A DNA stretch of 64,000 nt from Acidimicrobiia bacterium (GCA_965215185.1 OZ244034.1:1984001-2048000); one strand, 5' to 3'; positions 8,978 to 31,085 are shown, counted from the stretch's first letter. Numbers and translations: made by a program. Notes: generated by a model from the sequence alone, not told the origin.

Positions 8978-9048
8978 GACCTTTGACCCTACCGATCACG
9001 CCGGCGGTCGATGATTGCATTTTCACACCGCATGGAGGGTGAGTCGCG

Positions 9049-9136
9049 GGTGGGCTGTTGGCCACCACCCCTTACCTGCAGCTTAACGGGGGTTCTGGGA
9101 GGACACCACAATTACGAGAGGGGGGACACCACCATT
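9049..9136 (+). repeat. att-like repeat, copy 1 (arm GGACACCAC x2)
   Basis: GGTGG-GCTGTTGG-CCACC-ACCCCTTACCTG; GGACACCAC at 9101 and 9124. Confidence 0.85.
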
Positions 9137-9352
9137 GAAACTCGACATTACGGCGCAGGTTTGTGGGCTGCAAGGCCTCGTGACCACAGTTCCCCTCGTC
9201 GGAGACCTCTCTAGGAGATACCCCTCCCCTCGGTCAGCTCTCGCGGGCCAACATTCTTGTTAATGTGCATAGATCATGCAAGCCGAAAGGGGTTGTCAAG
9301 AGCCGACGCCCGTAGAATTGCCGAGTCCCCGGCTAGTGTGAAACGCTGAACT

Positions 9353-9901
9353 ATGGCACGCATCAAGATCATTCCCGACGACTCTTGGGACGGCGCACTC
9401 GGTGAGCTTCATCCGCGGGTTGTTGATCCGGCCTATGGCCGGGTCGACAACGTCCTCGCCGTGCACTCGCTCAACCCCCGCGGCATGGCGGCACACCAGG
9501 GTCTGTACGAATCGGCCATGGCCGGGACTGCAACGCTCCGCAAGGTCGAGCGCGAACTCATCGCCGTGGTCGTGAGCCTCGAGAACGACTGCCACTATTG
9601 AGTTGTCCACCACCGGCGCGGTCTGCGTCGGCTGCTCCACGACGACGAACTCGCCGCTGCGATTGAACACGACTGGACAACTGCAGCGCTGTCGCCAAAG
9701 CGGGTGGCGATGCTGAGTTTCGCGGTCAAACTGACGGTGACGCCGAGCGCGATGAACGACGCCGATGTCAATTCCCTACGAACCGCCGGCTTCTCTGATC
9801 GTGACATCCTCGACATAGTCGAGGTTGTCAGCTACTATGCGTACGCCAATCGGATCACCAATGGTCTGGGCCTTGAGACCGAAACGTGGATCCCCGATTG
9901 A
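9353..9901 (+). CDS. AhpD/CMD-like peroxidase-related selenoprotein (CHYU, TGA at 9599-9601)
   Basis: ORFs 9353..9601 and 9704..9901 share a frame; TGA occupies the second Cys position of the CxxC motif; SECIS-like hairpin follows. Confidence 0.88.
9613..9631 (+). promoter_or_regulatory. Bacterial SECIS element
   Basis: CCGGCGC-GGTCT-GCGTCGG stem-loop 11 nt after the UGA; GGUCU loop resembles the E. coli fdhF SECIS. Confidence 0.8.
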
Positions 9902-10002
9902 TCCACAAGGGGTAGAGCCAATTACCCCCAAAGCCAAGGGAAAGCCAGGAAAAGCAGCCTGTCAGCGGCTAAATCGCCAACAGCTAGACGTCGGTTGGTA
10001 TT

Positions 10003-10092
10003 GGTGGGCTGTTAGCGACCACCCCTGACCCGGGCTTTAGGAGGGGTTTTCGAGGGGGCTCCACAATTTTGAAGGGTGTGGACTCCACATTT
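10003..10092 (+). repeat. att-like repeat, copy 2 (arm GRCTCCACA x2)
   Basis: GGTGG-GCTGTTAG-CGACC-ACCCCTGACC; GGCTCCACAATT at 10057 and GGACTCCACATT at 10080. Confidence 0.8.
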
Positions 10093-10327
10093 CGGAAGTC
10101 ATGGCCGGAAAGCTTTTTGCGGACGGATCAGTTACTTCTGGCGCCTACCTCGATCAACAGCCGGCAGTGGCCGACCTCCTCGTAGCCTCTCGCATGTTGT
10201 TAGAGAGGTGGAAAGCGGAACGATAGAGCTCCTCTACCAACCCCACCACATGGTCTTAGTCTTTGGTGATTTGCTTACCTAGCGCGATGTACCTCAGAGT
10301 GCCATAACAGCCCCTGCCCATCAAGGC

Positions 10328-11074
10328 CTAACTTCTGGCCCTCGGCCTTCCAGGCCTGTCTTGAACGGCGGCAGCCATGAAGTTGCGATACAAGCGCTTG
10401 GCGGCGACAGCGAAGCCCGCCATGTGGTAATCGGCTTCGGTGGCCAGAGCGTCGATGGCGTTGGGACCAAGGACCGACTCTAGAGCCTCGCGGTAGGCAT
10501 CGACTGCACCCCAGTTGCGGACCGTGCCCTTCTCCACTTCCAAGTGGTATTGCATCGACCAGGCCAGCGGCCCCACCCGCATGGCCTGCACCCGGCAGTC
10601 CGGGGAACTCGCCAGTACCACCGCGTCATCGGGTGGCTGAGCCACCCGCACCGAGTGCCACTGCAAGACAATCTGGCGCTCGCCCATCTTGTTGAAGATC
10701 GGGTCGGCCCTGCCCTCGGCCGTCAGATCCACCCCGAATACGCCGATCTCAGGCGGGAGCTGCGGGCCACAAGTACCGCCGAGGGCGTCCGCCAGCAGTT
10801 GGTGTCCCAGGCACAGACCCAAAAAGGGCCGTTCCATCTCACGCACCCAGCGCCGGATGGCCCTCTTCTCCTGCACCAGCCACGGGTGCTCGTCCACATC
10901 CCACACGTCCATCGGGCCGCCCATCACCCATAGGACGTCGTAGTCCTCCAGAGGTGGGATCGGCTCGCCCGCGTCGAGTGCCACCGCGGTCCACTCAATG
11001 CCGTCGGCCCGCAGGAAGTCGCGCAGGCGGCCGGGGTGTTCACAATCGATGTGCTGAAAGACGAGCAGTCGCAT
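10328..11074 (-). CDS. Type 1 glutamine amidotransferase (GMP synthase-like)
   Basis: MGGPMD, LGLCLGHQ (catalytic Cys), QWH and QYHLE motifs. Confidence 0.92.
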   Translation of the reverse strand: MRLLVFQHIDCEHPGRLRDFLRADGIEWTAVALDAGEPIPPLEDYDVLWVMGGPMDVWDVDEHPWLVQEKRAIRRWVREMERPFLGLCLGHQLLADALGGTCGPQLPPEIGVFGVDLTAEGRADPIFNKMGERQIVLQWHSVRVAQPPDDAVVLASSPDCRVQAMRVGPLAWSMQYHLEVEKGTVRNWGAVDAYREALESVLGPNAIDALATEADYHMAGFAVAAKRLYRNFMAAAVQDRPGRPRARS

Positions 11075-11548
11075 GTACCGACCTCCTACCGTATCTCAAC
11101 GCTATCTCTTGTTCAAGCTCCCCAGCACCGTTCAGCCGCCGTCAAGCCCTCTTCTCCTGCACCATCCGTACCACCTGGCTCTGGGGATTCCGGGTCGGGA
11201 TGGCAGAGAGGGCATCAAGCCACTCAATCAAACTCACTTAAGGCTTTCAGCAATTTCATGACGATGAGGTGTGGAATGTTAACCACCTCCCTTGATCTGC
11301 GCATTAGCTGGCGATGCCGTTCGGAAGGTCCACATCTAAACCGAGAGAACATCTTGCCTGCGGAGACCCTAATTTGTTGGATGTGGGGATCGGCCTGAAG
11401 ACCCAAAGGGAGAACTGACCCGTGGACAACCCGGCGGGCCTGTTCGACCAAAACCTCGACCGTTAGGAAACGGACCAGCAACGGGTCACCGACATCGAGC
11501 GCCACGAGGCGTTTTCTGACCGTGCGGTGGTGAAAGGACACCTTGGTT

Positions 11549-11637
11549 GGTGGGCTGTTGGCCACCACCTCTGACCTGGGGCTTAGATGGGGGTTCGGGG
11601 AGGACACCACAATTCTGAGAGGGGGGACACCACAATT
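11549..11637 (+). repeat. att-like repeat, copy 3
   Basis: GGTGG-GCTGTTGG-CCACC-ACCTCTGACCTG; GGACACCACAATT at 11602 and 11625. Confidence 0.88.
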
Positions 11638-11994
11638 GGAAAGCTGCTGAAACACCCACCCGTCCAAGGCTGATGTCACTTCCCTGCCTGAAGAACTCAG
11701 ACCTGCTATCGCAAGCAAGATTCTTTACCGCTGAAAGACTGGCATCCATGTGGGAGAGGGAAGCCCATCCTGACGGACAGTCGACTCTCGAAGAAGCCAG
11801 AACCTCCCACGCGAGTCGTCGGAACCGGAATTCCCCTTATCCTCCCCTGCGGAATCGGTACGTATTTTGTCAACACGAATACATTCACATCAAAGGGGAT
11901 CTTCTCTCGGGAACCTCCTCGAACCCCAAACCCGGTGAACGATCAGGGCCGACCAAGGGTATCGTCGAATCGATGAACTGCTAAACGACCCAAC

Positions 11995-12564
11995 ATGAAC
12001 GGACAACCCATATCTATCTTGTTGCTAGGGCTTGTCGTGTGCGTATCCTGTTCAACAGCACAAGATGTCATCTCAAATACCATCTCGGAAGACATCAAAG
12101 TAGCTCCTTCCGAAAAAGCCGCCGCAAAAGGTGCCTGCAGCAGCAAGGGTGCTCGGGAACTGGTCGAAGAGTTCCTCTCCGCTTACTCCACGGGTTCGAG
12201 TAGCGCCAGTCTAACCGACCGTTTCTTTGCGCCTGATGATCGATTCCAGTGGTTCTACGATGCCCTGACTCGCCACGGTGAAGAGGCCACGGATCGTTCG
12301 AGCCTCGACTCATACTTCGCGCAACAACACGCGAGTGGAGACAATCTGCGGCTTGTGAGCTTCTCCTACGGATATCGTGATGAGGACAACACAGGCCACT
12401 TTGGGATGGTGCTCTCCCGCAATGAGCTAGTTCTTAATGGGAAGGGTGCCATTGACTGCGATTCGGGCAAGATCATGGTCTGGGCCACCGATCCTGCATC
12501 GTCGACTTCAAAAACGCAAGAGTCCATGGCAATTGGTGGTCGTGGTCAGTCGGTGGGATATTAG
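11995..12564 (+). CDS. Hypothetical secreted protein/lipoprotein
   Basis: Signal peptide with a VSC lipobox-like Cys; stop codon lies inside the core of repeat copy 4. Confidence 0.6.
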   Translation: MNGQPISILLLGLVVCVSCSTAQDVISNTISEDIKVAPSEKAAAKGACSSKGARELVEEFLSAYSTGSSSASLTDRFFAPDDRFQWFYDALTRHGEEATDRSSLDSYFAQQHASGDNLRLVSFSYGYRDEDNTGHFGMVLSRNELVLNGKGAIDCDSGKIMVWATDPASSTSKTQESMAIGGRGQSVGY

Positions 12565-12664
12565 CCACCACCCCTTAGCAATAGTGGTGGGTGTTGGCCA
12601 CCACCCCTTAGTGGGGAGGGGGTTCGGTTTCGGTGGGAGTATCACCACGATCACTCCCCACTAA
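12552..12664 (+). repeat. Tandem truncated att-like cores (copies 4 and 5) plus an 11-bp inverted repeat
   Basis: GGTGG-GATATTAG-CCACCACCCCTTAG and GGTGG-GTGTTGG-CCACCACCCCTTAG; TTAGTGGGGAG (12608) / CTCCCCACTAA (12654). Confidence 0.75.
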
Positions 12665-12835
12665 TCTCCCATGAGCCGCCAAAACCTCTCGGTCGCGCTT
12701 GTTTGCGACCCGCGCGCTCTTGCAGTTGGATTGACAGGATCGAGACGCGGTACTCGTCGATGTGTACACAGGTGGCCGATCTCACGCTACTTGGCGAATG
12801 ATTCAGTGCGGAGGTACTGAGGTGAGGAGCGGCTG

Positions 12836-13397
12836 CTACGATGTGGAAGTCGTTACGGTAACGCCAGTCTCGGCGGGCGTGGTCGGCTCCCACCCTGCAC
12901 CGCTCCACCTGAAGAGGAACGTGGTTGCTTTCCCGATACCGAAACCCTCTTCTATCCAGATGTCGATAGCTGCTACATCGTCCGCTGGGAGGTGAGTGCG
13001 CATCACGTCAAAGAAAGTCGCACCGTGGGCATAGGTGCCATCAGGCCCAGTCGCATCCTGGAGTTCTTGGTATGAGAGAAACTTGACCATCCGTTCCAAA
13101 CGCATCCTCCAGCGCGCCCCTCAGGTCGGCGCCCGCATGTAGGTAGGCGTACACGGGCCTCGCGTCACAGGACAGCGACAAACAGGCGGCAGACAAAGCG
13201 CGGGCCTGGATCTCAATTCTTGTCGCTGGGGACAGGTCCGGGTTACTGATGTCCTCACTACCATGTCCGCACGAGAGAGCAAGGATGCTCAGGGCGATGG
13301 CGACGGCGTGTACGGGACTGACCCTGGTGTTACCAGCCCTCATAGTCCCCCAAGAGCCTCCTGTGGATAAAGTCCTCAGCCGGTACCCGCGACTCAA
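12836..13397 (-). pseudogene. Hypothetical lipoprotein split by a frameshift
   Basis: ORF 13041..13397 (LALSC lipobox) overlaps ORF 12836..13105 in another frame. Confidence 0.5.
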
Positions 13398-13480
13398 ACG
13401 CCTGCTCTAAAAGCACCTTGACTTCCTCCGACCAATCCCCATCTGGTCCCCATCTGGTCCCCATTCGGCACCTCGTTGAA

Positions 13481-13864
13481 TCAGGCGCCCAACTTCCTGG
13501 GCAAACAGATCGGGCGGCCACCGGAGCGTGTAATGCTGGTTCTCCGCAAAGTAGGACATGGATTGCCTCGGATGGTATATCTGTAGGGTTTCGAAACTAA
13601 CGACACAACTGGCCCGCTTGCACGAAACCCACCGTTAACACTGATGACGATCAGTGAAAATCCCCAAGGGGAGAGTGGAACCCTGAGAAATCGCCCAGCA
13701 CGTAGCGTCTTTGCGTGGCTCGATATGTCATAAAAGAACTCGCCGGCCCACTCATGCGCCCCGGCGTGCATCCAACTTGGGATGCCCTCGCAAAGCGTCT
13801 CATATTCCCGGATAGCATCCTTGTCGGCCCGTACAGAAAGCGGATATCTCGACACCTCGGACAC
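13481..13864 (-). pseudogene. Hypothetical protein fragment
   Basis: Protein-like N-terminus (YETLCEGIPSWM) that degenerates downstream. Confidence 0.35.
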
Positions 13865-13875
13865 GACGCCGAGTC

Positions 13876-13964
13876 TATGGGCAGTTTAGCCACCACCCCT
13901 GACCTGCGGTTCTGTAGGGGGTTTCAGAAGCGTGTCACACTTTAACAGGGAGCGTGTCACACTT
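13876..13964 (+). repeat. att-like repeat, copy 6 (arm AGCGTGTCACACTT x2)
   Basis: TATGG-GCAGTTTAG-CCACCACCCCTGACCTG; AGCGTGTCACACTT at 13929 and 13951. Confidence 0.85.
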
Positions 13965-14149
13965 CGGGACCCACAATAGCCCCATTTACCCCCGAATTGG
14001 ACGACTTGGCGGATCCACGGCACGACGCCCCGCAGAGATCGGGGGTTCACCAGAGCCGCCAAAGCGCGAGGGCGCCACCCCCGAACCTGATCTGAACGGA
14101 ACAGGCACTGCCTGTATCGCCGAGGAAAGCCCTTCCATCAGCAGCTTGG

Positions 14150-14586
14150 AGAGAGCCCTGCCCAGCAACGGGCATTTGCCTCAGCAGGTGGGGAATTTCG
14201 ATGATCGTCATCAGCATCTAGTGGCAGTTGAGACCTGGGGCGAAGAAGGCTGTTTCGAGTTCGCCCACTTCACAGACAAGGAACTGGCACTGGCCATCCG
14301 TCGAATAGCACACGAGCGAAAGCAGACAGTCCCACCACAGGAGCAGATCGAGAAAGCTCTTACAACTCACCGCAAGAACAAACAAGACATCGGGAAGGTG
14401 TGGAATAACTGGGAGTGGCAACCATCTAAGGTCAAACTAGCGAAGGAAACCTGGCCCATCCTTCTTCGCAACCTCGCCGAACAGGATCACATGGAGATTC
14501 CTATAGGCAGGACCATCCAAACCATTGTTGACCTTGTTGGCCCAACCAAGCGAGCCACCCACATGAGAACCAACGACACAACCTGA
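14150..14586 (+). pseudogene. C-terminal fragment of a hypothetical protein
   Basis: Protein-like stretch VETWGEEGCFEFAHFTDKELA...SKVKLAKETWP with no credible start. Confidence 0.4.
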
Positions 14587-14896
14587 CCCGCTTTGTCCCT
14601 TCGACTGAACGGTCTGTGAAGAACAGCAGAATGGGTGTTACACCTAGGCCGTTTCTACAAGCACCGTCCGATCATTTGCACCCGCGGGTATCGTGGAACA
14701 TCCATGGATTCCACTCCAGTTGCCATTCCCCCATCCCAAGAGATCCCTGACTTTGGAGGAGGTGCTGATTCGCTCCGAACAGGGCAAACAGCGCCTGGTC
14801 GCGGCGGGAATGTCGACTACTCCGAAGATCGAACGGAGACTTGCGTGGAAACGCTCCCGAGGGATTGACACCACAGTGGAAGAACGACTCTGCACC

Positions 14897-14975
14897 AGGT
14901 TCAAGGGGTCGTCGCAACACTGTTTTGCTGGGTGGAATGTAGGAGTTCGTCGAGGGATTCGGCCATAGGAGCATC
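14897..14975 (-). mobile_element. IS30-family transposase C-terminus/end remnant
   Basis: AESLDELLHSTQQNSVATTP* resembles actinobacterial IS30 C-termini. Confidence 0.55.
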
Positions 14976-15200
14976 AACGGCCCGGCCGTGAAATCGATCG
15001 CCACAACTGGTTCGCAGCCCGGCCCCATCTCGCGCACGTGCGCACCCGCCACTGTGCCCCGCACACCGACGGTGTCGTCGAGCGCTGGTTCGAGTTGCTG
15101 AAATGCGAGCGCCTCTACCGCTGCGATATCGCCAACGGGATCGGCCTCGCCGCACACGTCGCCGCATTCATCGACGGATGCAAACTACCGACCGCGCACC
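14976..15200 (+). mobile_element. IS3/IS481-type integrase-core remnant
   Basis: Translates WFAARPHLAHVRTRHCAPHTDGVVERWFELLKCERLY, a decayed PxxNGxxER..LKxE motif. Confidence 0.7.
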
Positions 15201-15249
15201 CTCTGTGAGCCGGCGTCCACTTCAAGAAACAGTTCAGCGATCCGCGAGG

Positions 15250-15804
15250 TTAGGTCCACGGCAGCCACCAGTCGGGGGTGCCTTTGTCCAATATCCTGTG
15301 ATGGAAGTAGACCCGATGGTGGGCACAGGTAGATGGCGCGTTTTTCATGGCCCGATCCCAGAAAAACGACCCGAGTATTCCGGTGTCGGAAAACAACACC
15401 CAGTCCTCGTCGAGGCTGTGGTTCCACACCCATTCTGGGACAGCTATGTTGTGCCGATCAGCGAGCGCATGAACCACCGTAGCGATAGAAGGCAACAGGT
15501 AAAGGTCGGACCCTTCATAGGAAGGAGACTTCTCGATCGTGTCCGCTTTAGCGGGTGAGCTGTTCCAGTCGGCTACGAATTGCAGCAAGGGGGCGCGATA
15601 GGCTTCGAACAGCGTCTCTCCCACCATGTGCTGCGGCAAGTCAGCGGCGGCGAGGCGGCGCACCCGAAAAGAAGGCTTGCGCCTAATGGGCGCCTCGGAT
15701 GTAGGGCGGATGGGAAAGTTCAACTCGCTAGGCATAATCTGTTCCTCCCAACCCCAGTTTAACGGGAACCCAATATGGGACACCGGGGGGATATCCCTGT
15801 TCAA
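15250..15804 (-). CDS. Hypothetical protein (antitoxin-like)
   Basis: 184-aa ORF; IATVVHALADRHNIAVPEWV pattern resembles partners of nucleotidyltransferase toxins. Confidence 0.5.
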   Translation of the reverse strand: MNRDIPPVSHIGFPLNWGWEEQIMPSELNFPIRPTSEAPIRRKPSFRVRRLAAADLPQHMVGETLFEAYRAPLLQFVADWNSSPAKADTIEKSPSYEGSDLYLLPSIATVVHALADRHNIAVPEWVWNHSLDEDWVLFSDTGILGSFFWDRAMKNAPSTCAHHRVYFHHRILDKGTPDWWLPWT

Positions 15805-16045
15805 CCTCTCTTATGCGCTACTTTCAATCCGGAGTGTTTCATGGATCCCCTGGCCCAGAAACCCACATTCTTGACTTTCAGGTCCTCCACTGCAACCCGC
15901 CTGATGGTCTCCTCCGTTGCCTAGCTTCAAATGATAAATCTCCTGAGGCAGGTTTCGCCATTCCGTAGGCCGGATGCGCTCCCGCTGTGAGGGGTGTTTA
16001 CAAGCCACGCCGCGACCGAGTCACCGACCGGAGAGAAAGTTGGGC

Positions 16046-16321
16046 TTAGGGAAGGGCCCGGATGATGAACGACGCCATCTGCGCCCGGGTAACCGACTGG
16101 TCCGGGCAGTACAGGAGCGGCTGGGCGGAGCATCCCTTGGTCACTCTCACCCGGTAGAGGCCTTCCACCACCGACCAGTCGGCGTTGTTCACGTCGTCGA
16201 ACAGTCCCTGTGGACTGTCAATGGGGGTGATGTGTTCGAACATGCGGGTCAGCCACCGGGCCATCTCCAACCGGGTCAAAGGGTCGTTGGGACGCCACAC
16301 GGCGCTGGCGCGAAAATACAC
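16046..16321 (-). pseudogene. S-layer homology (SLH) domain fragment
   Basis: PNDPLTRLEMA and VTKGC...YCPDQSVTRAQMASF motifs. Confidence 0.75.
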
Positions 16322-16435
16322 AAGCGCAGGTCACGGGGTTGCCGCCGAAGGGCTTTAACACGGTTTAAGTCCAAAAGTGACACGGTCGTATTTCCCTTAC
16401 ACACCGAACCCAGTTCCCGCCGTGAGGTTGAGGCC

Positions 16436-16813
16436 CTATGCCAATTGGTAGTAGAGGTGCTTCCCCACCAGGTCCGTCAACTGCTCCTCGTCTAGTTGGT
16501 GGGAGGCGTAACCCAGCATCATCCAGGCCGCTACGTCTGTGTCGCAAGCCAAGACCCATCCATTGAGTATTGCGAAGAGGTTGGCTGTCCCCCAGCCAGT
16601 CGGGCGATGTCCTTCGTGTCTTGTTCCCGTCTGGATCTGCACGACGCTCGCCGCGTAGAACCTGATGTGTTTTGGTCTAAAGATCGCCTGATCCAGGAGC
16701 CCCTCGCTACGCAACCCGAAGCGGCCACCATGCATCTCTATCGCCCGGTCATGGATATCCAGGACATCCTCAACAGGGACCCAGATCGGATCCTCTCCCT
16801 CCACTTTCTTCAC
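16436..16813 (-). pseudogene. Doc (death-on-curing) toxin, catalytic motif lost
   Basis: DVLDIHDRAIEMHGG..GLRSEGLLDQAIFRP N-terminus and FAILNG; no HPFxDGNKR motif. Confidence 0.7.
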
Positions 16814-16827
16814 CTTATTCGACGGGA

Positions 16828-17001
16828 TCAGGCATCAGCGAGGATCTGGAGCAACTCGCCATCCCTCTCGAAGATCATGTCGATAGCGCCCTGCCGCTCC
16901 TCTTTGGTCAGAGGCTTCTCCCGTAGCCGCAGGCGGTTCTCCACCCGGTACCGTCGCTCTTCCTCCGGTGTCCTTCCGTTGGGATTCAGGTTGTCGTCCA
17001 T
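16828..17001 (-). CDS. Putative antitoxin upstream of doc
   Basis: 57 aa ending IFERDGELLQILADA, directly upstream of the Doc gene. Confidence 0.55.
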   Translation of the reverse strand: MDDNLNPNGRTPEEERRYRVENRLRLREKPLTKEERQGAIDMIFERDGELLQILADA

Positions 17002-17089
17002 GGCATGCTCGATGGTGGCTAACGGGTATACACCTAATATCCTACGCCCGCTGCCGATCGCAGACAGGGCGTTTGCCGGTGTCCACACC

Positions 17090-18011
17090 CATTTGAATCA
17101 AAGCGTACGCGTAGTACAACCTGACCCTCGGGGTGCTCCCACCGAAATATGTTCCCCACGGCAGAGCCATTCCCGCCCAAAACGACAACGCTCTCAACGG
17201 CCTCAACGCCCTCGAAAACTTCCCCAACCTCAAAGAAATCATCGCCGACATAGGATACACCATCTACGGAGAAGCCTTTGTGCGGCCTCTCCACCAAATG
17301 GGCATCAACGTGGTCATGGACTACAAGGAAGCCCACCAAAAGAAAATCAAGACAGTCACGATAGGACCCGAGGACAACGAACAGATACTGCTGCTCCACT
17401 GCGGCACCTTCCTCGTAGAGTGAACACCCGAACGCTTCTGGATACCACCCCAAGACCTGACCGGCGAAAAACTAGCCGAATGGTACGCCAAACGGGCCAA
17501 ACACCGATGGACACCCATCGGCAAACCCGACAAGAACGGTGCTATCCGATTCCGCTGCCCACAATGCGACGGCAGAGTCAAAACCAACGCCAAAACCCGC
17601 ATCCGCAGCAAAAGATCCCAACGCAAAGCACCCTACGCCACCACCATCGACCAGGAATACTGCTGCAAAGGCACCCTAACCATCCCCGTCGAAGAACTCG
17701 ACACCTACCAGCACATCCCCTTCGGCACTCCCGCCTGGAAAACACGGTACGGCGGACGAATGCAAATCGAGAACCTCAACAGCCTCGTAAAAAACGACCG
17801 CGGTCTCAAAGACGGCTGGTGCCGGGCACTCCGACAAGCCGCCCACAACTTCGGACTCCTCGCTCTGCTAATCGCTCACAACCTACGCCAACCCAACAAC
17901 TTCGACAACGACGACGAACCACACAGCGAGCAGCCACCCACCCCCAGGGCATGTCTTTCCAGAACACCAGATGTCGCTAACGGGTTAACAACCCGAGGCC
18001 CACCCCCCTAA
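17090..18011 (+). mobile_element. DDE transposase remnant (IS4 superfamily/IS1182-like), 5'-truncated with an internal stop
   Basis: IIADIGY, CPQC and YGGRMQIE (YREK-like) motifs, AHNLR; TGA at 17421-17423 joins two same-frame ORFs. Confidence 0.75.
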
Positions 18012-18198
18012 CACACCCCCGGGGCGATTAGAACCGACAGCAACCAACCCTGCTGTCAGCTTTAGCGCGCCCGGAAAACCAAAACCCGGCACCTAACCTG
18101 TCCCAAACCCTCTTCGGATAGCTCACCCCACCTCCAAAAACGGGCACCACCCCAAAACCGCCTAAAACCGCCCCCACCAGCTAAATCGCCAACGAATT
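17975..18198 (+). repeat. Transposase 3' end region, copy 1
   Basis: Homologous to 31625-31857; ends CTAAATCGCCAACGAATT. Confidence 0.8.
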
Positions 18199-18268
18199 CG
18201 TCATTCGCCTCAGGAGATCCATGGCGCGTTGGGCCTTCCTTGTTATAAGATCCAGGTAGGCTAGGACA

Positions 18269-18632
18269 TCATTTCCGGGCATAGAGTTGCATCTTTTGAT
18301 CATCCACTGCCCGTTTGAAGTATTCGTTGTCAACGCAACCATAGGTTCCAATATCGATCCGCGCTCGCCCTTCCTTTGACGTCAGATAGTCCACGAATAT
18401 ATCTTCTAGGGCTACGGTCAGAGCGCGGTAATTGACTGGATATACGGCGCCCTCCCCCTTGGTTGGTATCCCACGAAGGTAGTGTTCCGGCGGCCCATCG
18501 TAATGGTTTCTGGCTTCTGGCGTGAAGTCAACCATGAAATCAAGGTCGGACTCTCCAGGTCGGTAATCATCGGTCACTGCCGAACCGTACAGGTAGAGGC
18601 ATTCCACGCGATATTGTTGACATGCCGCCTCG
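18269..18632 (-). pseudogene. Minimal nucleotidyltransferase (MNT) antitoxin-like gene
   Basis: ACQQYRVECLYLYGSAVTDDYRPGESDLDF (GS...DxD); in-frame TAG just upstream. Confidence 0.7.
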
Positions 18633-18668
18633 GGCTAACCGCGGTCCAAAGTAGGGTAGTGGTTCAGT

Positions 18669-19112
18669 TTGACCCTCCGACCTGCGGATTCGCCCTTCAA
18701 ACTGAACCACTACCCATTGTTGGAACAGCCCATGCCCGAGTATCGCGAACCCGCCGACACGCCTCTCCCAGATCGAATACCCCCGGTGTTTTGGTGGATG
18801 TTCTGGTCCGGGCCAGACCCGATGTTTCTTCGTTTGCCGGAGCACGCTTGGTATATGGCCTCTCGGATGCTATCTCCGAAAGGCTCCCGCCGACACCTCC
18901 CGGCAGAGACTTGGGCGTTGGAACACCTACCTGACTGGGCGATGGACCGCTTGTTGGGTTCCCGGGGGTACGACGATACGCCCACCGAGGAGCGTATGGA
19001 ACTGAGACTCTCCCATCCCGATGCCGGATCAGTCGTTTTGGATTTGCAACTGAGGGTTCTCGACGCTGGCTGTTTGCCTGTAGGTGGTGGTGGAATACCC
19101 GGGAGGATGTGA
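18669..19112 (+). CDS. Hypothetical protein
   Basis: Trp/Pro-rich IPPVFWWMFWSGPDP segment; the 3' end runs into a transposon-like end. Confidence 0.45.
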   Translation: MTLRPADSPFKLNHYPLLEQPMPEYREPADTPLPDRIPPVFWWMFWSGPDPMFLRLPEHAWYMASRMLSPKGSRRHLPAETWALEHLPDWAMDRLLGSRGYDDTPTEERMELRLSHPDAGSVVLDLQLRVLDAGCLPVGGGGIPGRM

Positions 19113-19145
19113 CGGATTGTCCGGGTGGATGTGGTGGAATACCCG
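19079..19145 (+). mobile_element. Tn7/Mu-like transposon end
   Basis: 5'-TGT at 19079, then GTGGTGGAATACCCG at 19087 and 19131 and a 10/15 match at 19109 (22-bp period). Confidence 0.55.
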
Positions 19146-19772
19146 CGAATGTGTGATGGCGGCCCTCCGGGGAGGTGCGGGAAGGCCTGCGGTTGGGTGT
19201 CGGCGGGGAGTGGGTGGGTGTGCTGGTTTGTTGTTTTTCGAGGGTTTTATGTTGCGTTTCCCTTCTGTCCAAGACGTTGCAATGCGCAGATGGGTTTCTG
19301 TTTTGGAGGGCCGTGTGTTCCTTCATTGTATGTGTATCGTATTTTGTGCACGTTGTGTTTATGAGGGGCGGGTGGGTTATGGTGACGGTGTCCCCGTGGC
19401 GTACGGGCTGATTGCCTGTCTTGAAGGTGCGTGCTGGCTGCTTGGGTTGGTCCCCATCCTTTATTGGCTTATCACCAAAGGCAGAGCTTTACTACCTTCT
19501 ATTGATAACTACCGGTACTTGGGCCTAATCCTCTATATCGGTGCCATCTGCTTGGGTTTCCTCCGCTATCAACTAAAAAAGCCTACCGCAATAGCCGCAT
19601 CCTCCGATTCTCACGACCCGCCCCCAACCGAGGATGACGCCAGGCCCGTGGCGGAGGCCATCAACGATCCACCACCGCGCCAACAGGAGAGCGGCGGCCG
19701 AGGGGGTGACACAAAAGCAAGGAGATGGATGTTGGTCGCGGCGGCGCGCAGCGCCTCGCTAGGATCGGTCGC

Positions 19773-20138
19773 ATGACATCGACGCGGGCTAGCAAGGCAG
19801 CCACGGCTTCGCAAGCGGGACTGGAAGAAGCCATCAGAGAAGCGCAGGGCCGCCTCGACGAGTTTTACCCTGCCGATTGGGACTACTACGAGGAGTTGGT
19901 GGCGAAGAACCCGCCCAGCGGCAGGATCACCGTGCCACACAAGATCACGGGGACACTCGTACCCGTTGATCTGCTAACCATTACACCCGACGAGATCGTC
20001 GAACAGTGCGGTATCCCCGATCACATGCGGGAAAGGTCATTACAGGGTTATCGCTTGATACTGCAAGCGCGGTTGCCATATTGGGATCAGAACCTTCTTC
20101 CTAGCACTATCCCTCTATTGGAAGACAGCAACGTCTAG
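19773..20138 (+). CDS. Hypothetical protein
   Basis: 121-aa ORF ending just before repeat copy 7. Confidence 0.45.
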   Translation: MTSTRASKAATASQAGLEEAIREAQGRLDEFYPADWDYYEELVAKNPPSGRITVPHKITGTLVPVDLLTITPDEIVEQCGIPDHMRERSLQGYRLILQARLPYWDQNLLPSTIPLLEDSNV

Positions 20139-20158
20139 GCACCAATAGGAACCAGAGT

Positions 20159-20225
20159 TGTGGGCAGTTTGCCACCGCCCCTGACCTGGGCGTTAACGGG
20201 AGGTTCCAGGAGCGTGTCACACTTT
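20159..20225 (+). repeat. att-like repeat, copy 7
   Basis: TGTGG-GCAGTTTG-CCACCGCCCCTGACCTG...AGCGTGTCACACTTT (single arm). Confidence 0.82.
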
Positions 20226-20399
20226 CTGACCCCGAGCAGTGGCGGTCGACAGCCACGGGAAAGACATCCGGCGCATGCGGGCGCCGCTATGCCCAACCGA
20301 AAACCGAGCTTAGACTTGAGATCCATGCCAGGTTCGGTACAGCATCCAAATGGGAGGCAGCGGGCACCCCTCGACCCCGCCTTTTTCGTTCCATTCCAA

Positions 20400-21030
20400 C
20401 ATCGGCTACGGTCTTTGTACGGTTCCACGCCGCATCGCATCAGCCACCTGACCGCTATGTCGATGGCGAGAGTCGCTATCCAATCGGGTTTCGCTTTGGA
20501 TGTGTCTGGCCCGCCCGTCGATCCCGAAACAGCTAAACGCTTGAAGGTCTTCCATCGCGAGGAACCCGGCGTAACTCTCATGGTGGGAGCCAACCCTTGG
20601 CATGGGTCCACTTGGATATCTCAACCAGAACGAGCGTTATTGGAATGCCTCCAGGACTCAGACAGGCTCCCGGATGGAGAAACGGTAGGGGCAGAAGTCC
20701 TATTACCGAGGCGAGGCCGTGGTTGCGGAAACTGTCATAGAGATAGCTCACCGCTTGGGATGGGGCAAGCCACTGCGCCGATTGGCGTCGATCGCTGACC
20801 GCATGGACAATTGTCGTGGCGTGTTCTCTGTCAGGCCCGACGGGTTCTTGCACGACAACCAGCGCCTTTTCCTGGACGTGGACGAGGCGCCGTCTGACAG
20901 CGACTGGACTTGCGTTATACCGGCCCGTCACGATCCGCCACCCCGCGGGAGCTTTTTCCTCGACGAAAAACAACGGGTGGTGTGGTGCTGGACGCACCCG
21001 CACGCCCTTTTGGAGGACCTGCTCTATTGA
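20400..21030 (+). pseudogene. AbiEi-like type IV antitoxin, frameshifted and 5'-truncated
   Basis: WISQPERALLECL, then in another frame RLGWGKPLRRLASIA...RVVW; paralogue of 26437..27273. Confidence 0.65.
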
Positions 21031-21046
21031 CCTACGGCGTTGCCCT

Positions 21047-21073
21047 TCTGGCCAGTTTGCCACCACCCCTGAC
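21047..21073 (+). repeat. att-like repeat, copy 8 (core only)
   Basis: TCTGG-CCAGTTTG-CCACCACCCCTGAC. Confidence 0.7.
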
Positions 21074-21467
21074 TACGTAGTCCCTAGATGGTGGATCCAA
21101 GAATGGCAATAGACACGCCGATCACCAGACAACCCGCAGCCGCTCGATTGTCGCCAAAACGACCAGCTTTCGCGTGTCGCATCATCGCCGAATACCGAAA
21201 GTCAATAGCGTGGCGGGCCACCCGACAGATCCTCACCCTGCAACCCAGCACCCACGCCAGGAATCAAGGCTTGGTGCGATGACATCTGGAACTTCGAAAC
21301 CCGGGGCGGTTCACCGCTAACCGTGGGCGGGAGCCGAGTGGAACTAGGCCATTGTCCAGGCACTAGTGTGCTGTCTGCTAAGTGGCTGGGAGAGTTAGAG
21401 GGCCAGTGCGCAGGGAATCTGGCTTGGGTAACCCACCCACTCACTTGACAGACACACCCTAGGTTGC

Positions 21468-21587
21468 TTACTTAGAGTGCCTCTTGTGCCACTTCTCCTT
21501 GCGAGCAGGACTCCTGCGGTCTTTGCTTGGAGCAAATTCGCCGCCCTTTCTTCGACGGACGATCCGGACTTCCTTTTCCTTTCCCAT
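21468..21587 (-). CDS. 39-aa basic small protein (not in the ORF track)
   Basis: AAAGGAGGTGA ribosome-binding site, then ATG; MGKEKEVRIVRRRKGGEFAPSKDRRSPARKEKWHKRHSK*. Confidence 0.6.
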   Translation of the reverse strand: MGKEKEVRIVRRRKGGEFAPSKDRRSPARKEKWHKRHSK

Positions 21588-21800
21588 TCTTCTTCACCTC
21601 CTTTCAAATGTGGCGGGGTTGCGCGACCCCGGAATCAAACACGGGATCACCTACTAAAGTGTAATGTCTGCTAAGTAGCAGGGCTGATAAGAAAAACCAG
21701 TGTGCAGGGAGTCCGGCGCGGGTGGGTTACGGTTTCGTTGCGCCTATAGCTATTTCGCAGGCATATCACTAGCACCTATAGGAGCGTTGTGGCAGGCCGC

Positions 21801-21865
21801 GGTGGGGTGTTTGCCACCATCCCTGACCTGCAGCTTAACCGCGGGTCTCGGGAGGACACCACAAT
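21801..21865 (+). repeat. att-like repeat, copy 9
   Basis: GGTGG-GGTGTTTG-CCACCATCCCTGACCTGCAGCTTAAC...GGAGGACACCACAAT; close to copy 1. Confidence 0.85.
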
Positions 21866-21967
21866 GGAGTCGCCCATTTAGAGCACAAAATTGGGGGATG
21901 CAAGAAGCCGCATTAGGGTGGCAACCCGCATGGTAGCGGTTTGTAAAGCATCACTTCGGAGGGGTAA

Positions 21968-22770
21968 GTGATTAGCGTTTCCACAGTGTCCGACACCATA
22001 GATCACTCGGTTGTGGATCCTCGTTTCCATCCGATACATTGGCGCTTCCAAGAACTCCTCATAGAACACCATGGCTTGCGGGGAGGAGATCCCCAAGACA
22101 TCGGCGAGTGGGCACTGAGAGTGTGCCAGACGGTGAGGGAACTTCTCGATCCGGACCACGAATGCGTGGCGGACACCAAGTCGCTACTCCATGAACTCAG
22201 AGCGTTGGACTTTGTGCGACCGGGCCTAAGGAGAAAGCAGGAAATCCATCATCGGCTCCGCGGTCCCATCCGAGCACAAGGTTATGGTTTGGCGATAGCC
22301 GCTGCGATGGCTGAGCGGCCTGATCGGACTGTGTTGCGGGTGGTTGATCTCCATCCGTGGGTTGCAGAGTTGGCAGAGCCACTTTGGAATGATGAGTATT
22401 GGTTCGCAGCGGTCACGGCTGCTGGTGACAATGTGCGGGCGAAGTGGAAGGCCGTTCTCGGACTCAGAACGGCCCGCACCGAACAACTAGTAAGTGCCTC
22501 CAGTCTGGATGACCCGAAGCCTGGGCAACCCCGAATGCGATTTGCCTGCTATGACCGTGATCGCGATGAAGACGAGTGGAACAACGGCCACGAGGGGTCA
22601 TGCACTTCGCTCGAGGGTGCATGAAGCGAATCCGCAACCTCTACAAGTATCAACCGCAGAGTCCGGCTATCTCACCCGGACTGGCGTTGGAAACCTTGGC
22701 CGCGTTAAGTCGCCTAGCCCGCTGGATCACCGATGCAAAGGTGGAACAAGCAGAAACTGCGAGCAGCTGA
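21968..22770 (+). pseudogene. TIGR02391/Ymh (HEPN-like) family protein with one frameshift near 22595
   Basis: LHPWV..LWNDEYW.AAV, PKPGQPR, HEG/VMHFARGCMKRIRN and ALETLAALSRLARW motifs. Confidence 0.75.
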
Positions 22771-24710
22771 TGGGTTGGGATGATGGGCTCAAGGATCCCC
22801 ACCTCAAAATAGCTACAAGCAACGAAGCAAGGATCGGCGTGTTGGCTGGCCCAGGAACAGGCAAGACAAAGTATGGACTTATGCGACGGGTTGCAAGATT
22901 GCTCTCAGAAGGCGTGCCACCTAATCGAATCCTCCTCCTCTCCTTCACGAGAGTTGCGGCCGCTGATCTTCGCGACAAGGTCGCGGAACTCGACGTCCCA
23001 AGTGCGGAAGATGTTCGCGCTACGACTCTCCATGCCTATTGCCTCGGTCTTTTGATGCGGGACTCGGTTCTTAGGCTGACCGGTCGGCATCCCAGAATTC
23101 TCATGAACCATGAAAGAGACCTGATGCTTCGTGATGTCGGTGGCGAATTCGGTTCGATCTATGACCGCCGGAAGCGTCTGGAAGCTCTGCTCGCGGGTTG
23201 GGCGCGCAAGGAAACCGACCATCCGGGTGTTGCGGTAGAAGACGAGGACCGCGCCTTCGAGCGGGGTGTTCTCCGCTGGCTGAGGTCTCATCGCGCGATG
23301 TTGATCGGTGAAGTAATCCCCATTGCTCACCGTTACTTGTCCACTAACCCTGCCGCCGAAGAATTGGATGCCCTTGAGCACCTCGTTGTGGACGAGTACC
23401 AGGACCTGAACGCTCTCGAGCAGGATCTCTTGGAGGTACTGGCTAGCAATGCAAAGAGCTTATGTGTCGCTGGCGATGATGACCAATCGATCTACAGCCT
23501 GCGATATGCCAACCCGCTCGGCATTCGCATTTTTCTCAATAGGGAGGATGTTGAGACCCACGGCATCGAGGTCTGTGGCAGATCGCCGACAAATGTGGTT
23601 CGTATGGCGAACGCGCTTATCGAACAGGCCCCACATCGAGAAAAGCCACCCCTCATTCCGCTTCATCTGGATCAAGAGGGCGATATATCCATTGTTCAAT
23701 GGGTAGACATTCCGTCAGAAATCGAAGGCATCGTTGCCGCGATTGCTGATGACGTAGGTCGCCGAGGGATCGAGCCAGGCGAGATTCTCGTGTTAGCTAA
23801 CTGGAGAAAAATCGGCGCACAGATCCGAGACAGGCTGAGTGACTTAGACATTCCGTCCCGCTCGTACTTCACAGAGGATGAACTCGAAACCGATCAGGGT
23901 CGGGAGGCCTTAGCGCTTTTGCGCCTTGTGGTGGATCGGAGCGACCTGCCAGCGATTCGCGTTCTCGTGGGCCTGGAAGAGGGATCGGGGAGATCGGCCG
24001 CCTATCAGAGGCTTCTTGAGTATTGCCACAACAACGGATATGAGGCCGCCGACGCTCTTGGTCGCCTAGCGGTCGGCGAAAGACTCTCTGGCTTGCGGGT
24101 GCCATCCCTCGTCAACCGTTACAAGCGAGCAATGTGCCGAGTGGACCTCTTGCGAAAGCTGGGATTGTCGGACATGGTCGATGATTTATTCCCAGATGGT
24201 GACGATGCACTTGCTGACTTGCGTGGCGCCGCCCTCGACGCAGTTCAAGCGGCAAAGGGGCCCAACGAAGTGTTGGACCACATCGTAGCGGCCGTTACTC
24301 AGAACGATGTCCCTCAGCAGCCAAACTTCGTTCGGGTCATGAGCCTTCACAAATCGAAGGGATTGACTGCCAACGCTGTCTACATAGCGGGCGCAGTGGA
24401 TGGGATAATTCCTACCGTGACCTCCACAGACCAAGCTGAAGTCGAAGCCGCCATTGAAGAAGGTCGGCGTCTCTTCTATGTTGCCCTTACCAGAGTTGTT
24501 CACCAACTTGTCATATCCTCCAGCAGGACGATGGATCTTGCCGACGCTAACGCTAGGGGCGTGAAGTATCTGCCGGCAACCATACGGAAGTCAGGTAGTC
24601 GATTCACGATCCGCACAATCGCTAGTCAATACCTTGCCGAACTCGGGCCGTCGGCGCCCCGCCCCCTGCGGGGTGAGGTGTGGCTAGCATCACGATCCCC
24701 CGAAACCTAA
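22770..24710 (+). CDS. UvrD/Rep-family SF1 helicase
   Basis: AGPGTGKT, SFTR, TTLH, VDEYQD, GDDDQSIY, MSLHKSKGL and RRLFYVALTR motifs; TGATG overlap with the upstream gene. Confidence 0.92.
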   Translation: MGWDDGLKDPHLKIATSNEARIGVLAGPGTGKTKYGLMRRVARLLSEGVPPNRILLLSFTRVAAADLRDKVAELDVPSAEDVRATTLHAYCLGLLMRDSVLRLTGRHPRILMNHERDLMLRDVGGEFGSIYDRRKRLEALLAGWARKETDHPGVAVEDEDRAFERGVLRWLRSHRAMLIGEVIPIAHRYLSTNPAAEELDALEHLVVDEYQDLNALEQDLLEVLASNAKSLCVAGDDDQSIYSLRYANPLGIRIFLNREDVETHGIEVCGRSPTNVVRMANALIEQAPHREKPPLIPLHLDQEGDISIVQWVDIPSEIEGIVAAIADDVGRRGIEPGEILVLANWRKIGAQIRDRLSDLDIPSRSYFTEDELETDQGREALALLRLVVDRSDLPAIRVLVGLEEGSGRSAAYQRLLEYCHNNGYEAADALGRLAVGERLSGLRVPSLVNRYKRAMCRVDLLRKLGLSDMVDDLFPDGDDALADLRGAALDAVQAAKGPNEVLDHIVAAVTQNDVPQQPNFVRVMSLHKSKGLTANAVYIAGAVDGIIPTVTSTDQAEVEAAIEEGRRLFYVALTRVVHQLVISSSRTMDLADANARGVKYLPATIRKSGSRFTIRTIASQYLAELGPSAPRPLRGEVWLASRSPET

Positions 24711-24939
24711 ATCGGGAGGAGTGCCCAAACAGGGCTCGTATTGGGCGCAGGATCTAGGGTCTCCGTAGGAAGAACAATCACGGTGATCTCGGAAGTTAGT
24801 CAGCGATTCAGAGTGACCGCCACCCGACTAACTGAGAGCTAGGACAACGCTCATCACTGCGGCAAGAGCTGCTTGGGATGATTGGATATTCGAGCTTGTC
24901 AGAGACCGAAGGGACAGTGTCCACGATGGTCCTCGGACC

Positions 24940-25497
24940 ATGATTGTCCTGCGGGGTTCGTCTGCTGTTGGTAAGACCACCGTGGCGAGATGCCTTGCCC
25001 GCCAGCACGGCGTCGCCAATGTTGATACCAACCCTATTAAACGGGGAATGGGCATCACCCACGATCAGTTGCTTGAACACACCGAGATGGAACCCGATAA
25101 AGAGTGGTTTGTTGAAATCGATGGCTACTACAAGTACGGGTGGAAGGGCGCTGCTGCTTCGGCGTCTCTGTCAGCTGTGCTGTTGGCCGCCGAAGCCATG
25201 GACCAGGGATCTCATGCTGTGATAGCCGGGTTGGAAAATGCGTGGCTTCGGTCTTTTCGCGGCTGGGAAGAGGTCGTAACTCGGCTGGTGGCGCCGCACA
25301 GGATGTTCGCCGTGCGGCTTGTGGTTGACCCTTCCGTGCGGAAGGAGCGACTCTGCCAACGCAGTCCCGGCCAGTGGTCCTGGGCACCCGAAAACACCTC
25401 TAGTGATGGGAAGTCTCTGACAGTAGACACCACCAATGTCACTCCAGCCGAGGCAGCCGATCTGATCATCAAACACAGCGGAATATCAGCAACGTAA
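24940..25497 (+). CDS. P-loop kinase (AAA_33/nucleotide kinase-like)
   Basis: IVLRGSSAVGKTT, RKERLCQR lid and VDTT motifs. Confidence 0.75.
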   Translation: MIVLRGSSAVGKTTVARCLARQHGVANVDTNPIKRGMGITHDQLLEHTEMEPDKEWFVEIDGYYKYGWKGAAASASLSAVLLAAEAMDQGSHAVIAGLENAWLRSFRGWEEVVTRLVAPHRMFAVRLVVDPSVRKERLCQRSPGQWSWAPENTSSDGKSLTVDTTNVTPAEAADLIIKHSGISAT

Positions 25498-25659
25498 GTC
25501 TGCACCCAATCAACATCGCTAAGACGACCCCCCTTTCGCAAAAGGCATGAGACAAGTCCGAAGGTTGTTCTCCCGACCAGGTTTGCCCTGCTCCCGTGCA
25601 TCCGAGGTCTGTGAAACTGGGTGGCCGTCAGGGAAGGGGTTTTCTTAGTCTGGAAGCCT

Positions 25660-26424: not shown

Positions 26425-26436
26425 CTTGCCGAACAT

Positions 26437-29294: not shown

Positions 29295-29323
29295 CTGCGG
29301 CCCCTTCTCCACATAAGCCCCCT

Positions 29324-30052: not shown

Positions 30053-30696
30053 TCAACCAACCCACATGCGACAACCGGCAGTGCTTTTTGGTTCGGGGAA
30101 GGCCATGTTCGTTTCCGTTTTCATGCTGCGACTCTGGATATGTTCGGTCGGGATTCCGTCACGATAGCGCCGGGCCTGTGACAGTGCTCCTGCCACCGTG
30201 TGACGGGTGGCTGTCGATGCGGCCTGATTGACCGGCAAAACAGTTATCCTGAGCCTGCTCTAGCTGCGGTTGATGAGCGGTCCGATTCGCTTCTGCGCCC
30301 GGTCAAAGTGTTGGTGAGGTGCTCCCGGGGATACTGACCGTTAGGGTTGTATTCGTAGTGGTACGTCACCACCGCCCTGCCTGAGACAATCATCCCCGAC
30401 GGTTGGGACATTCCTTCTCGGGACAGGGCCAGTTAGGATCTTCTATCCCCAAGACAGCGCACGGAAGCGCGGCACCCCAAACGGGGAAAAGTGGGTGCTC
30501 CGGTGGGTGGGCAACCCCCGAGGAGACGCTGGAGCACCCAAACCATCTCTAGTGTGGGCATGTTCTCCACCACCACTTCTGCTTCGGCGACTTCTTCAGG
30601 GGTGGTGGGCTGGTCTGTTTCGTCGTCGGAATGGCACCAATACCTAACAAGTGGCTCGGTGGCAGAAGCAGACCTCGAATACGCAGTGCTTGTCTG

Positions 30697-31084: not shown

Positions 31085-31085
31085 C

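Follow-up and report, generated by a model that had tools for sequence, protein, structure and literature searches.

A ladder of repeats beside a tRNA-Lys gene in an Acidimicrobiia genome: probable left ends of stacked, tRNA-directed DDE transposons

Nine short, similar sites lie on one strand between unrelated genes in a stretch of DNA from an Acidimicrobiia bacterium, and the question is what put them there. The stretch, called the window below, comprises 64,000 nt (G000:C1:1984001-2048000) of a source genome (G000) of 3.12 Mb in a single contig; positions are those of the window unless stated otherwise. A first-pass annotation had taken the sites for att-like recombination sites of tyrosine-recombinase architecture, delimiting either an integron-like cassette array or stacked minimal integrative elements that lack their own integrase. 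The analysis reported here leads to a different enzyme: the nine sites are probably the left ends (LEs) of lineage-specific DDE transposons, specific in site and orientation, which insert beside the 3' ends of tRNA and transfer-messenger RNA (tmRNA) genes and stack head-to-tail. The ladder of the window is the tRNA-Lys(UUU) stack of such elements, decayed, non-autonomous and loaded with unrelated cargo, so that the second of the two earlier proposals came close. The transposon family is apparently undescribed and builds large gene-cassette stacks in sponge-associated actinobacteria.

All nine copies were found again on the plus strand, starting at 9049, 10003, 11549, 12552, 12586, 13876, 20159, 21047 and 21801. 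The 18-mer GCCACCACCCCTGACCTG, searched with at most three mismatches, gave seven matches in the window, all on the plus strand; shuffled sequences led to an expectation of 0.17, and none of 100 shuffles reached seven. An LE profile built from 48 genomic copies and searched with nhmmer recovered the nine listed copies and a degenerate tenth (Table 1). The 8-nt spacers quoted for the inverted-repeat core were correct. The core itself, described as (G)GTGG-N8-CCACC, does have dyad symmetry, which is kept with little compensatory change, and is better read as five junction nucleotides (NNRGT) followed by a 12-bp terminal inverted repeat. The G-run and the direct repeats 22-23 bp apart, attributed to full copies, are present in the copies starting at 9049, 10003, 11549 and 13876; one direct repeat is left in each of the copies at 20159 and 21801, and those at 12552 and 21047 are truncated past the core. 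Sequence left of the core is unrelated between the window copies, as had been noted, save for the remnant of a right end (RE) in front of copy 2. The limits given for the ladder (9049-21865) were too narrow: further copies precede the first base of the window by 1.3, 12.6 and 17 kb, and the ladder is part of the tRNA-Lys(UUU) stack, which begins at least 17 kb before the window and terminates at 31881.

Across the whole source genome the LE profile gave 70 matches at E <= 1 and 59 at E < 1e-3. Stacks hold 52 of the 59, and all 52 face the 3' terminus of an oppositely encoded tRNA or tmRNA gene (tmRNA 24, tRNA-Lys 10, tRNA-Met 9, tRNA-Leu 3, tRNA-Ser 3, tRNA-Val 2, tRNA-Glu 1); three have the opposite orientation and four lie outside any stack. 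The motif is thus not scattered through this genome in both orientations. The five largest stacks add up to 192 kb, or 6.2% of the genome. The direct repeats of the LEs fall into the subtypes GGACACCACAATT, GGCTCCACATTT, GCGTGTCACACTT, TCTGTCTCCTCC and ACGTCACCTC. In the tmRNA stack about 500 bp to the left of each repeat are conserved and encode a protein C-terminus with a Y-R-E-K motif. A second profile, made from the ~280-bp tails beside tRNA-Lys, tmRNA, tRNA-Leu and tRNA-Ser, found 19 copies in the genome; 13 run up to an LE and 4 to a tRNA or tmRNA gene, with 2 reaching neither. On this evidence the repeats were assigned as left ends and the tails as right ends.

A full element runs LE, optional cargo, orfB, tnp, RE. 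The LE consists of an imperfect 12-bp terminal inverted repeat, a CCCTGACC box, the G-run and two to three direct repeats spaced 22-23 bp apart; the RE is a non-coding tail of ~280 bp with two direct repeats and a matching inverted repeat. Full orfB-tnp copies sit in the tRNA-Met stack, where orfB encodes 317 aa and tnp 594-596 aa, the two genes overlap by 4 bp, and the RE tail ends at the tRNA or at the next LE. At an RE|LE junction the inverted repeat of the RE is followed by 5 nt and then by the inverted repeat of the LE: CGCGAAGACCCC|GCTGT|GGGGTCTTCGCG in the tRNA-Met subtype (12/12 complementary) and GGACCAGAGGTC|NNGGT|GGCCTGTGGGCC in the tmRNA subtype (9/12); in the window subtype GCCAATTGCCC pairs with GGGCTGTTGGCC (9/12). 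The terminal repeats are wholly different between subtypes, yet within each they remain inverted copies of one another, that is, they change together. Where the RE meets a tRNA or tmRNA gene, the acceptor-stem complement takes the position of the LE repeat and the 5 nt correspond to the discriminator plus CC(A); the last base of the 5-mer tracks the discriminator (T at Lys, Leu, Met and tmRNA genes, C at Ser, A at Cys). Some 5 nt (NNRGT) thus separate the RE end from a resident LE or from the target gene's acceptor stem, and the sequence in common between RE end and tRNA end amounts to ~5-7 nt. Two units, one in each case, have equal 5-mers on both flanks: ATGGT at tRNA-Leu and GCTGT at tRNA-Met. 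A reading of the LE as an RNA element or guide RNA was dropped because RNAalifold on the 48 LE copies gave no consensus structure, only two short dyads with almost no compensatory change.

The product of tnp is the likely catalyst, on the evidence of its residues and of a structure model. The IS4 superfamily is marked by a DDE triad with the motif Y-(2)-R-(3)-E-(6)-K, and Tnp has this pattern: D213, D336, E510, Y503, R506 and K517 are invariant in all 15 aligned sequences. Sequence searches found few close relatives (24 matches, one of them named 'transposase'); searching NCBIfam with Tnp and OrfB returned no match, Pfam gave no AAA+ or TniQ domain in either product, and neither the single Tnp sequence nor its profile retrieved anything relevant among the sequences of solved structures. 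The ESM Atlas placed Tnp among unnamed Actinomycetota clusters alone, one of which has PF01609 in 10% of its members. With the model of Tnp (predicted local distance difference test score, pLDDT, 63) the top Foldseek match was Tn5 transposase, weakly (E 0.08); VIA-align superposed the model on Tn5 transposase (PDB 1mm8, 1muh) over 246 residues (Z 12.0, root mean square deviation 4.3) and on the core of avian sarcoma virus (ASV) integrase over 147 (Z 12.1). Tnp is accordingly described as a likely Tn5/IS4-like DDE transposase of the YREK type.

OrfB belongs to no Pfam or NCBIfam family. Its structure model (pLDDT 71) matched XerA, Cre, XerH, the Tn1549 integrase, IntI and XerD in Foldseek over both domains (E 1e-5 to 1e-2, probability 0.99-1.00), so the predicted fold is that of a tyrosine recombinase. 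An exhaustive profile search collected 2655 cluster representatives at E <= 1e-3. Among 70 diverse members G178, G180, R212, V214, P215, R263, R265, T267, W268 and G287 are at least 90% conserved, the position presumed to hold the first catalytic arginine is variable, no C-terminal tyrosine is conserved and 47 have no tyrosine at all in their last 60 residues; the position that we take to correspond to the nucleophile of Cre is a conserved leucine. When 10 of 150 listed distant relatives were put to Pfam, only faint matches to PF00589 appeared (E 0.17 and 0.25), and the OrfB alignment (A2) has no cysteine-rich N-terminus. Model and alignment together describe OrfB as a tyrosine-recombinase fold without a conserved catalytic tyrosine. 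A prediction of the complex of Tnp with OrfB scored 0.25 (mark 0.32). The att-site view had called for a co-occurring tyrosine recombinase; PF00589 has 29 matches in the source genome and none in the window.

The insertion chemistry and the role of OrfB are put forward here as proposals drawn from sequences and models. Tnp would bind the end repeats and perform the chemistry, and OrfB would act as the DNA-binding selector of the target, by analogy with TnsF in Tn6022-like Tn7 elements, whose inactivated tyrosine-recombinase domain selects the target for a DDE transposase (Faure et al. 2023; PMC10293859). Since each LE starts like a tRNA acceptor end, stacks could grow at resident LEs as well as at the gene itself, and non-autonomous copies would be mobilized in trans. 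A broader proposal, judged somewhat less likely than not, is that these elements form an undescribed class of self-stacking, site-specific transposons in which a Tn5-like DDE enzyme is steered by a dead tyrosine-recombinase homologue to the acceptor-stem side of tRNA and tmRNA genes, the LE recreates the target by imitating a tRNA 3' end, integron-like cassette platforms thereby arise without an integrase and come to occupy ~6% of a genome, and units are exchanged between sponge symbionts.

The relatives repeat the arrangement. The 18-mer GCCACCACCCCTGACCTG with at most two mismatches occurs in all 16 congeners searched, in 1 to 27 copies each compared with 46 in the source genome, and outside the genus is near background; tnp is present in 9 of the 16 congeners and in none of 24 other relatives searched. 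In congeners the 3' end of tnp was located at 23 distinct loci, where the RE that follows runs into a tRNA or tmRNA gene in 15 cases (Lys 6, Ser 3, tmRNA 3, Leu 2, Val 1) and into an LE in 7, with neither in 1; orfB lies upstream of an N-terminally complete tnp in 10 of 11. At another place (L035, G007:C53, ~3471-3490) the sequence past the RE corresponds to the tmRNA 3' end for only ~12 nt before it becomes unrelated; this short piece may be a displaced tmRNA fragment or a left end that mimics tmRNA. A wider scan with one genome per species gave 22 loci from metagenome-assembled genomes (MAGs) of sponge-associated Acidimicrobiia (Ca. Spongiisociaceae, Ca. Aldehydirespirator, Ca. Poriferisodalis, Acidimicrobiales). 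The two genes are adjacent in 18 of them, and in 12 an antisense tRNA gene (Val, Arg, Leu, Met, Lys, Gly, Ser or Cys) lies within ~250 bp downstream; two further loci have uncalled tRNA-like ends and three have an LE-like sequence with a CCCTGACC box and new direct repeats. These loci are not all independent, because three look like the same places as three of the congener loci. In a sample of 400 other genomes of the phylum, with three candidates scored in each, the sole Tnp match was weak (in G186) and no claim is based on it.

Evidence of mobility comes from a 6.5-kb unit on OZ253564.1 (L050, 2478-8959), an element pair equivalent to the two tRNA-Met-proximal elements of the source genome, with identities of 99.76% (3356 bp) and 99.94% (3131 bp). 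Identity runs from the LE repeat to the RE repeat plus GCTGT; beyond this point there is an LE in L050 and tRNA-Met in the source genome. The unit occupies a different stack position, and the sequence outside it on the left is unrelated. Because the unit is 99.8-99.9% identical while the chromosome of the L050 MAG is only ~93% so (92.8% in the tRNA-Met flank), the comparison points to a recent exchange between sponge symbionts. The first-pass annotation had asked for strain breakpoints at the cores; homology with relatives breaks at the repeat starts. The RtcB flank is conserved through 9047 in G002 and G004 (92.7%), and the break at 9047/9048 lies at the same nucleotide in these two and in the source genome, with three different contents to the right; homology with G006 (93.5%) breaks at the first bases of an LE, at 20159-20162. 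The tRNA-Lys locus of G011 has cargo blocks in common with the source genome at 89-97% identity in a different order, together with blocks that the source genome carries in its tRNA-Ser stack or elsewhere. A search for an empty site at tRNA-Met found the distal flank unmatched in five congeners, the tRNA standing there in a different context. Among sequencing data, seven DNA runs contained at least half of the sampled words, in contig form. Three partial copies of the tRNA-Met 3' half, ~50 nt each, occur in G002 (C1 1223290-1223341, 1254265-1254315 and 2348164-2348211) and are the signature of ordinary integrase-type islands at the same tRNA. Beside tRNA-Lys in G006 (L005, 17856-19166) there is a 1.3-kb insertion sequence, unrelated to the tRNA-targeting family, of which the source genome has at least seven copies at 77-83% identity.

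Several findings weigh against transposition by Tnp and OrfB as set out above. Tnp falls below the cut-off for PF13751 (20.3 and 23.4 bits against 25.1), and the structure models of both proteins are of middling confidence. An hhalign comparison of the OrfB alignment with the Xer-like recombinase of the source genome gave nothing (probability 0.1), so that the residue mapping of OrfB rests on our own reading of its motifs; and since Y146, R212, R263 and R265 are invariant, there is a small chance of an unusual catalysis based on Y146. Intact tnp in the source genome is limited to the tRNA-Met subtype. An RE is missing to the left of eight of the nine listed rungs, and a simple LE...RE|LE...RE picture therefore needs decay or some other route; two cargo blocks in common with G011 at 92-97% have no LE there. 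A simple target duplication does not fit the junction 5-mers: they are unequal in the near-identical L050 copy (TGCGT/GCTGT), and none of eight window rungs matches the tRNA-Lys trailer CTGGT.

One rival explanation is conservative site-specific recombination, in which the repeats are att sites and a circular RE|LE element recombines with the tRNA end, through an active tyrosine recombinase in trans or through OrfB with a non-canonical nucleophile. The junction is a dyad about a 5-nt centre with GT mostly conserved, OrfB has the fold and the four invariant residues just named, some PF00589 matches lie within the tmRNA stack, and in L050 only the right one of the two 5-mers travels with the element. 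Such chemistry, however, requires matching overlaps whereas the 5-mers of partner junctions differ; the usual C-terminal helix of OrfB has no conserved tyrosine, no PF00589 gene is found consistently beside the stacks, duplicated tRNA segments of 15-40 nt are absent from the stack ends, and a gene with an intact DDE triad is strictly linked to the element ends. This explanation is therefore considered unlikely. Quite unlikely, in our view, is that homologous recombination between LE and RE arms, following DNA uptake, does most of the reshuffling of the stacks, with transposition now rare or extinct for the window subtypes: the terminal repeats are the exact limits of the 99.9% unit, whose outer sequence on the left is unrelated, and breakpoints fall at the LE start, not inside the LE, although the window subtypes do lack an intact tnp in the source genome and, between it and G011, the same cargo stands behind different LE subtypes and the cassettes differ in order. 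The rungs without a left-hand RE, the two G011 blocks without a repeat and the 4 of 59 copies away from any tRNA stack are what a small dispersed repeat would leave, of the repetitive extragenic palindrome (REP) or miniature inverted-repeat transposable element (MITE) kind, delimiting no mobile units among ordinary island genes. The co-orientation of 52 of 59 copies toward tRNA or tmRNA, the 13 copies that directly abut an RE tail, the pairing of the repeat with an inverted counterpart at the other end of elements that carry genes and the near-identical 6.5-kb unit bounded by LE and RE make such a repeat very improbable; among the compared loci, moreover, no lone ~100-bp copy was present or absent between conserved flanks. 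DDE transposition beside tRNA and tmRNA 3' ends thus remains the favoured reading of the ladder, and the features of the window are listed accordingly in Table 1.

Table 1. Left ends, right ends, cargo and anchor of the tRNA-Lys(UUU) stack in the window.
Feature	Position	Strand	Evidence or remark
LE copy 1	9046..9139	+	direct repeats of GGACACCACAATT type
CMD/AhpD-family cargo gene, in-frame TGA, candidate selenoprotein	9353..9901	+	Pfam PF02627, E 1e-12, TGA read as U
RE remnant of the CMD cassette	9917..9982	+	RE profile match, model positions 191-256
LE copy 2	9999..10098	+	GGCTCCACATTT-type repeats
Class-I glutamine amidotransferase, cargo	10328..11074	-	PF00117, E 1e-20
Tenth LE copy, degenerate, absent from the first-pass list	11269..11353	+	nhmmer 28 bits
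LE copy 3	11547..11643	+	LE profile
Cargo open reading frame, 189 aa, without Pfam family	11995..12564	+	DNA 87-89% identical in G009, G013
LE copy 4, truncated after core	12550..12575	+	LE profile
LE copy 5, abuts copy 4	12584..12660	+	LE profile
LE copy 6, GCGTGTCACACTT-type repeats; left end of a 4.3-kb LE...RE element	13872..13970	+	LE profile
Transposase pseudogene, C-terminal half, one in-frame TGA	17139..18005	+	Tnp profile A1 positions 295-595, E 7e-114, 1 stop
RE tail, cut past first direct repeat, behind tnp pseudogene	17977..18204	+	RE profile
LE copy 7	20157..20227	+	LE profile; G006 homology ends at its first bases
LE copy 8, truncated	21046..21076	+	LE profile
LE copy 9, left end of 10-kb tRNA-proximal element	21796..21869	+	LE profile
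Cargo of tRNA-proximal element	21968..31445	.	Hypoth_Ymh, UvrD-like helicase, AAA kinase, metallophosphoesterase, HEAT/LRV, phosphodiesterase, PP2C
Complete RE tail, two TAAATCGCCAA repeats, abuts tRNA	31602..31878	+	RE profile
tRNA-Lys(UUU), anchor and target of stack	31881..31956	-	Rfam

Between copy 9 and tRNA-Lys the LE profile found no further LE, and an Rfam scan of the window at the gathering threshold reported tRNA-Lys only, with no RNA family at the repeats. The CMD/AhpD gene is 95-97% identical to its counterparts in G011, G004 and G002, and a complete version of its cassette's RE is retained in G002. Its in-frame TGA lies in a C-H-Y-TGA motif and is preserved in the 97% identical G011 copy; because the source genome carries a tRNA-Sec gene, the product is likely a selenoprotein travelling as cassette cargo. 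The homologue of the 189-aa open reading frame (ORF) in G009 is followed next by an LE. A 494-aa ORF at 16496-17980 was rejected as an out-of-frame artefact across the tnp pseudogene. Between the cut RE and LE copy 7, three tandem ~22-bp units resembling GTGGTGGAATACCCGGGAGGAT occur at 19087-19159, and an inverted repeat with 28-nt arms (86% complementary, 24 nt between the arms) at 18645-18724 adjoins an ORF with a nucleotidyltransferase domain (18269-18607). The first cargo of the tRNA-proximal element (21968-24710) is a Hypoth_Ymh-domain protein overlapping a 738-aa UvrD-like helicase, a pair apparently of defence type. Two paralogous molybdopterin dehydrogenase (CoxL/CoxM-like) clusters, at 2911-6628 of the window and at 1978878-1981160 of the genome, occupy neighbouring stack elements; since G011 has a single fused version, recombination between the paralogues is suggested.

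If the proposal holds, it would explain the tRNA-anchored cassette stacks of up to ~80 kb in sponge-associated Acidimicrobiia, for which the searchable literature describes no integrons or comparable platforms; because their cargo is defence-like and metabolic, the stacks would likely drive strain-level variation in sponge symbionts. The two-gene format is minimal and should be easy to reconstitute, and a compact pair that inserts DNA one-way a few bases from a tRNA end would be a possible tool for site-specific insertion. No description of this transposon family was found in the literature covered, ISfinder and the supplements of papers lying outside that coverage.

The elements have the Y-R-E-K motif and the DDE triad in common with the IS4 superfamily and Tn5, whose transposase is also the best long structural match to Tnp, and the match to PF13751 is weak, below the cut-off; they differ in their long, asymmetric, multi-repeat ends, in an obligatorily linked accessory gene and in strict targeting of tRNA ends. 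An integron combines IntI, attI and cassettes with attC, an imperfect bipartite palindrome (R''-L''...L'-R') at the 3' end of the cassette. The window resembles integrons, and arrays of attC sites lacking an integron integrase (CALIN), in its co-oriented ladder of short conserved sites and its unrelated, mostly single-gene cargo. The label integron-like nevertheless does not suit it: the window has no tyrosine recombinase gene, there is neither an integrase gene (IntI) at the array end nor attI nor an attC-type hairpin or palindrome, each site is a transposon LE with a partner RE, and the stack is anchored on a tRNA. An active tyrosine recombinase has the residue set R-K-H-R-H/W-Y and acts on inverted cores around an identical overlap. 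Of this architecture, which the first-pass annotation had recognized in the sites, the dyad is present and OrfB has the fold; but the 5-mers differ within the stack and from the tRNA trailer, no element-encoded recombinase has the active residue set by our mapping onto Cre, OrfB lacks a conserved nucleophile tyrosine and the likely catalyst is of the DDE type.

Among tRNA-directed elements, the tycheposons of marine bacteria (10.1101/2020.12.28.424599) target tRNA and tmRNA genes by means of active recombinases of the tyrosine or large serine class, and partial tRNA copies flank them. The present stacks are like them in repeated insertion at tRNA and tmRNA genes, older elements being pushed inward, and in varied cargo and decayed remnants; target and tandem stacking agree, and in place of a site-specific integrase as the mobility gene there is a DDE tnp with a tyrosine-less OrfB, together with inverted-repeat ends and only ~5-7 nt in common with the tRNA end. 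The Tn7-like and CRISPR-associated transposons (CASTs) that home to tRNA genes also insert beside them in one orientation, ~30-33 nt downstream by means of TnsD or a guide RNA (PMC10293859), in contrast to an RE ~5 nt from the acceptor stem here. The IS1202 subgroup (10.1101/2022.12.17.520857) is comparable as a DDE insertion sequence reportedly found again and again against binding sites of tyrosine recombinases. It uses host Xer sites on plasmids and is not known to encode a recombinase-fold partner.

A close parallel is Tn6022 with TnsF (PMC10293859): a DDE transposase linked to a recombinase fold without the catalytic tyrosine, insertion specific in site and orientation, and multiple end repeats are found in both. 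The trio of TnsB, TnsC (AAA+) and TniQ/TnsD that marks Tn7-like elements was not found here; the core, in contrast to that of Tn6022, consists of two genes without TnsA, TnsC or TniQ, in an order that recurs in 18 of the 22 loci, and its target is a tRNA or tmRNA 3' end instead of comM. OrfB has no zinc-finger N-terminus such as that of TnsF, and the resemblance of Tnp to Tn5/IS4 extends further than that to TnsB (246 aligned residues compared with 147). If the proposed roles are right, this would be a second, independent case, after TnsF in Tn7-like elements, of a DDE transposase that recruited an inactivated tyrosine recombinase; by analogy, the Tnp-OrfB pair looks like an independent and simpler version of the TnsF arrangement, built around a Tn5-like enzyme.

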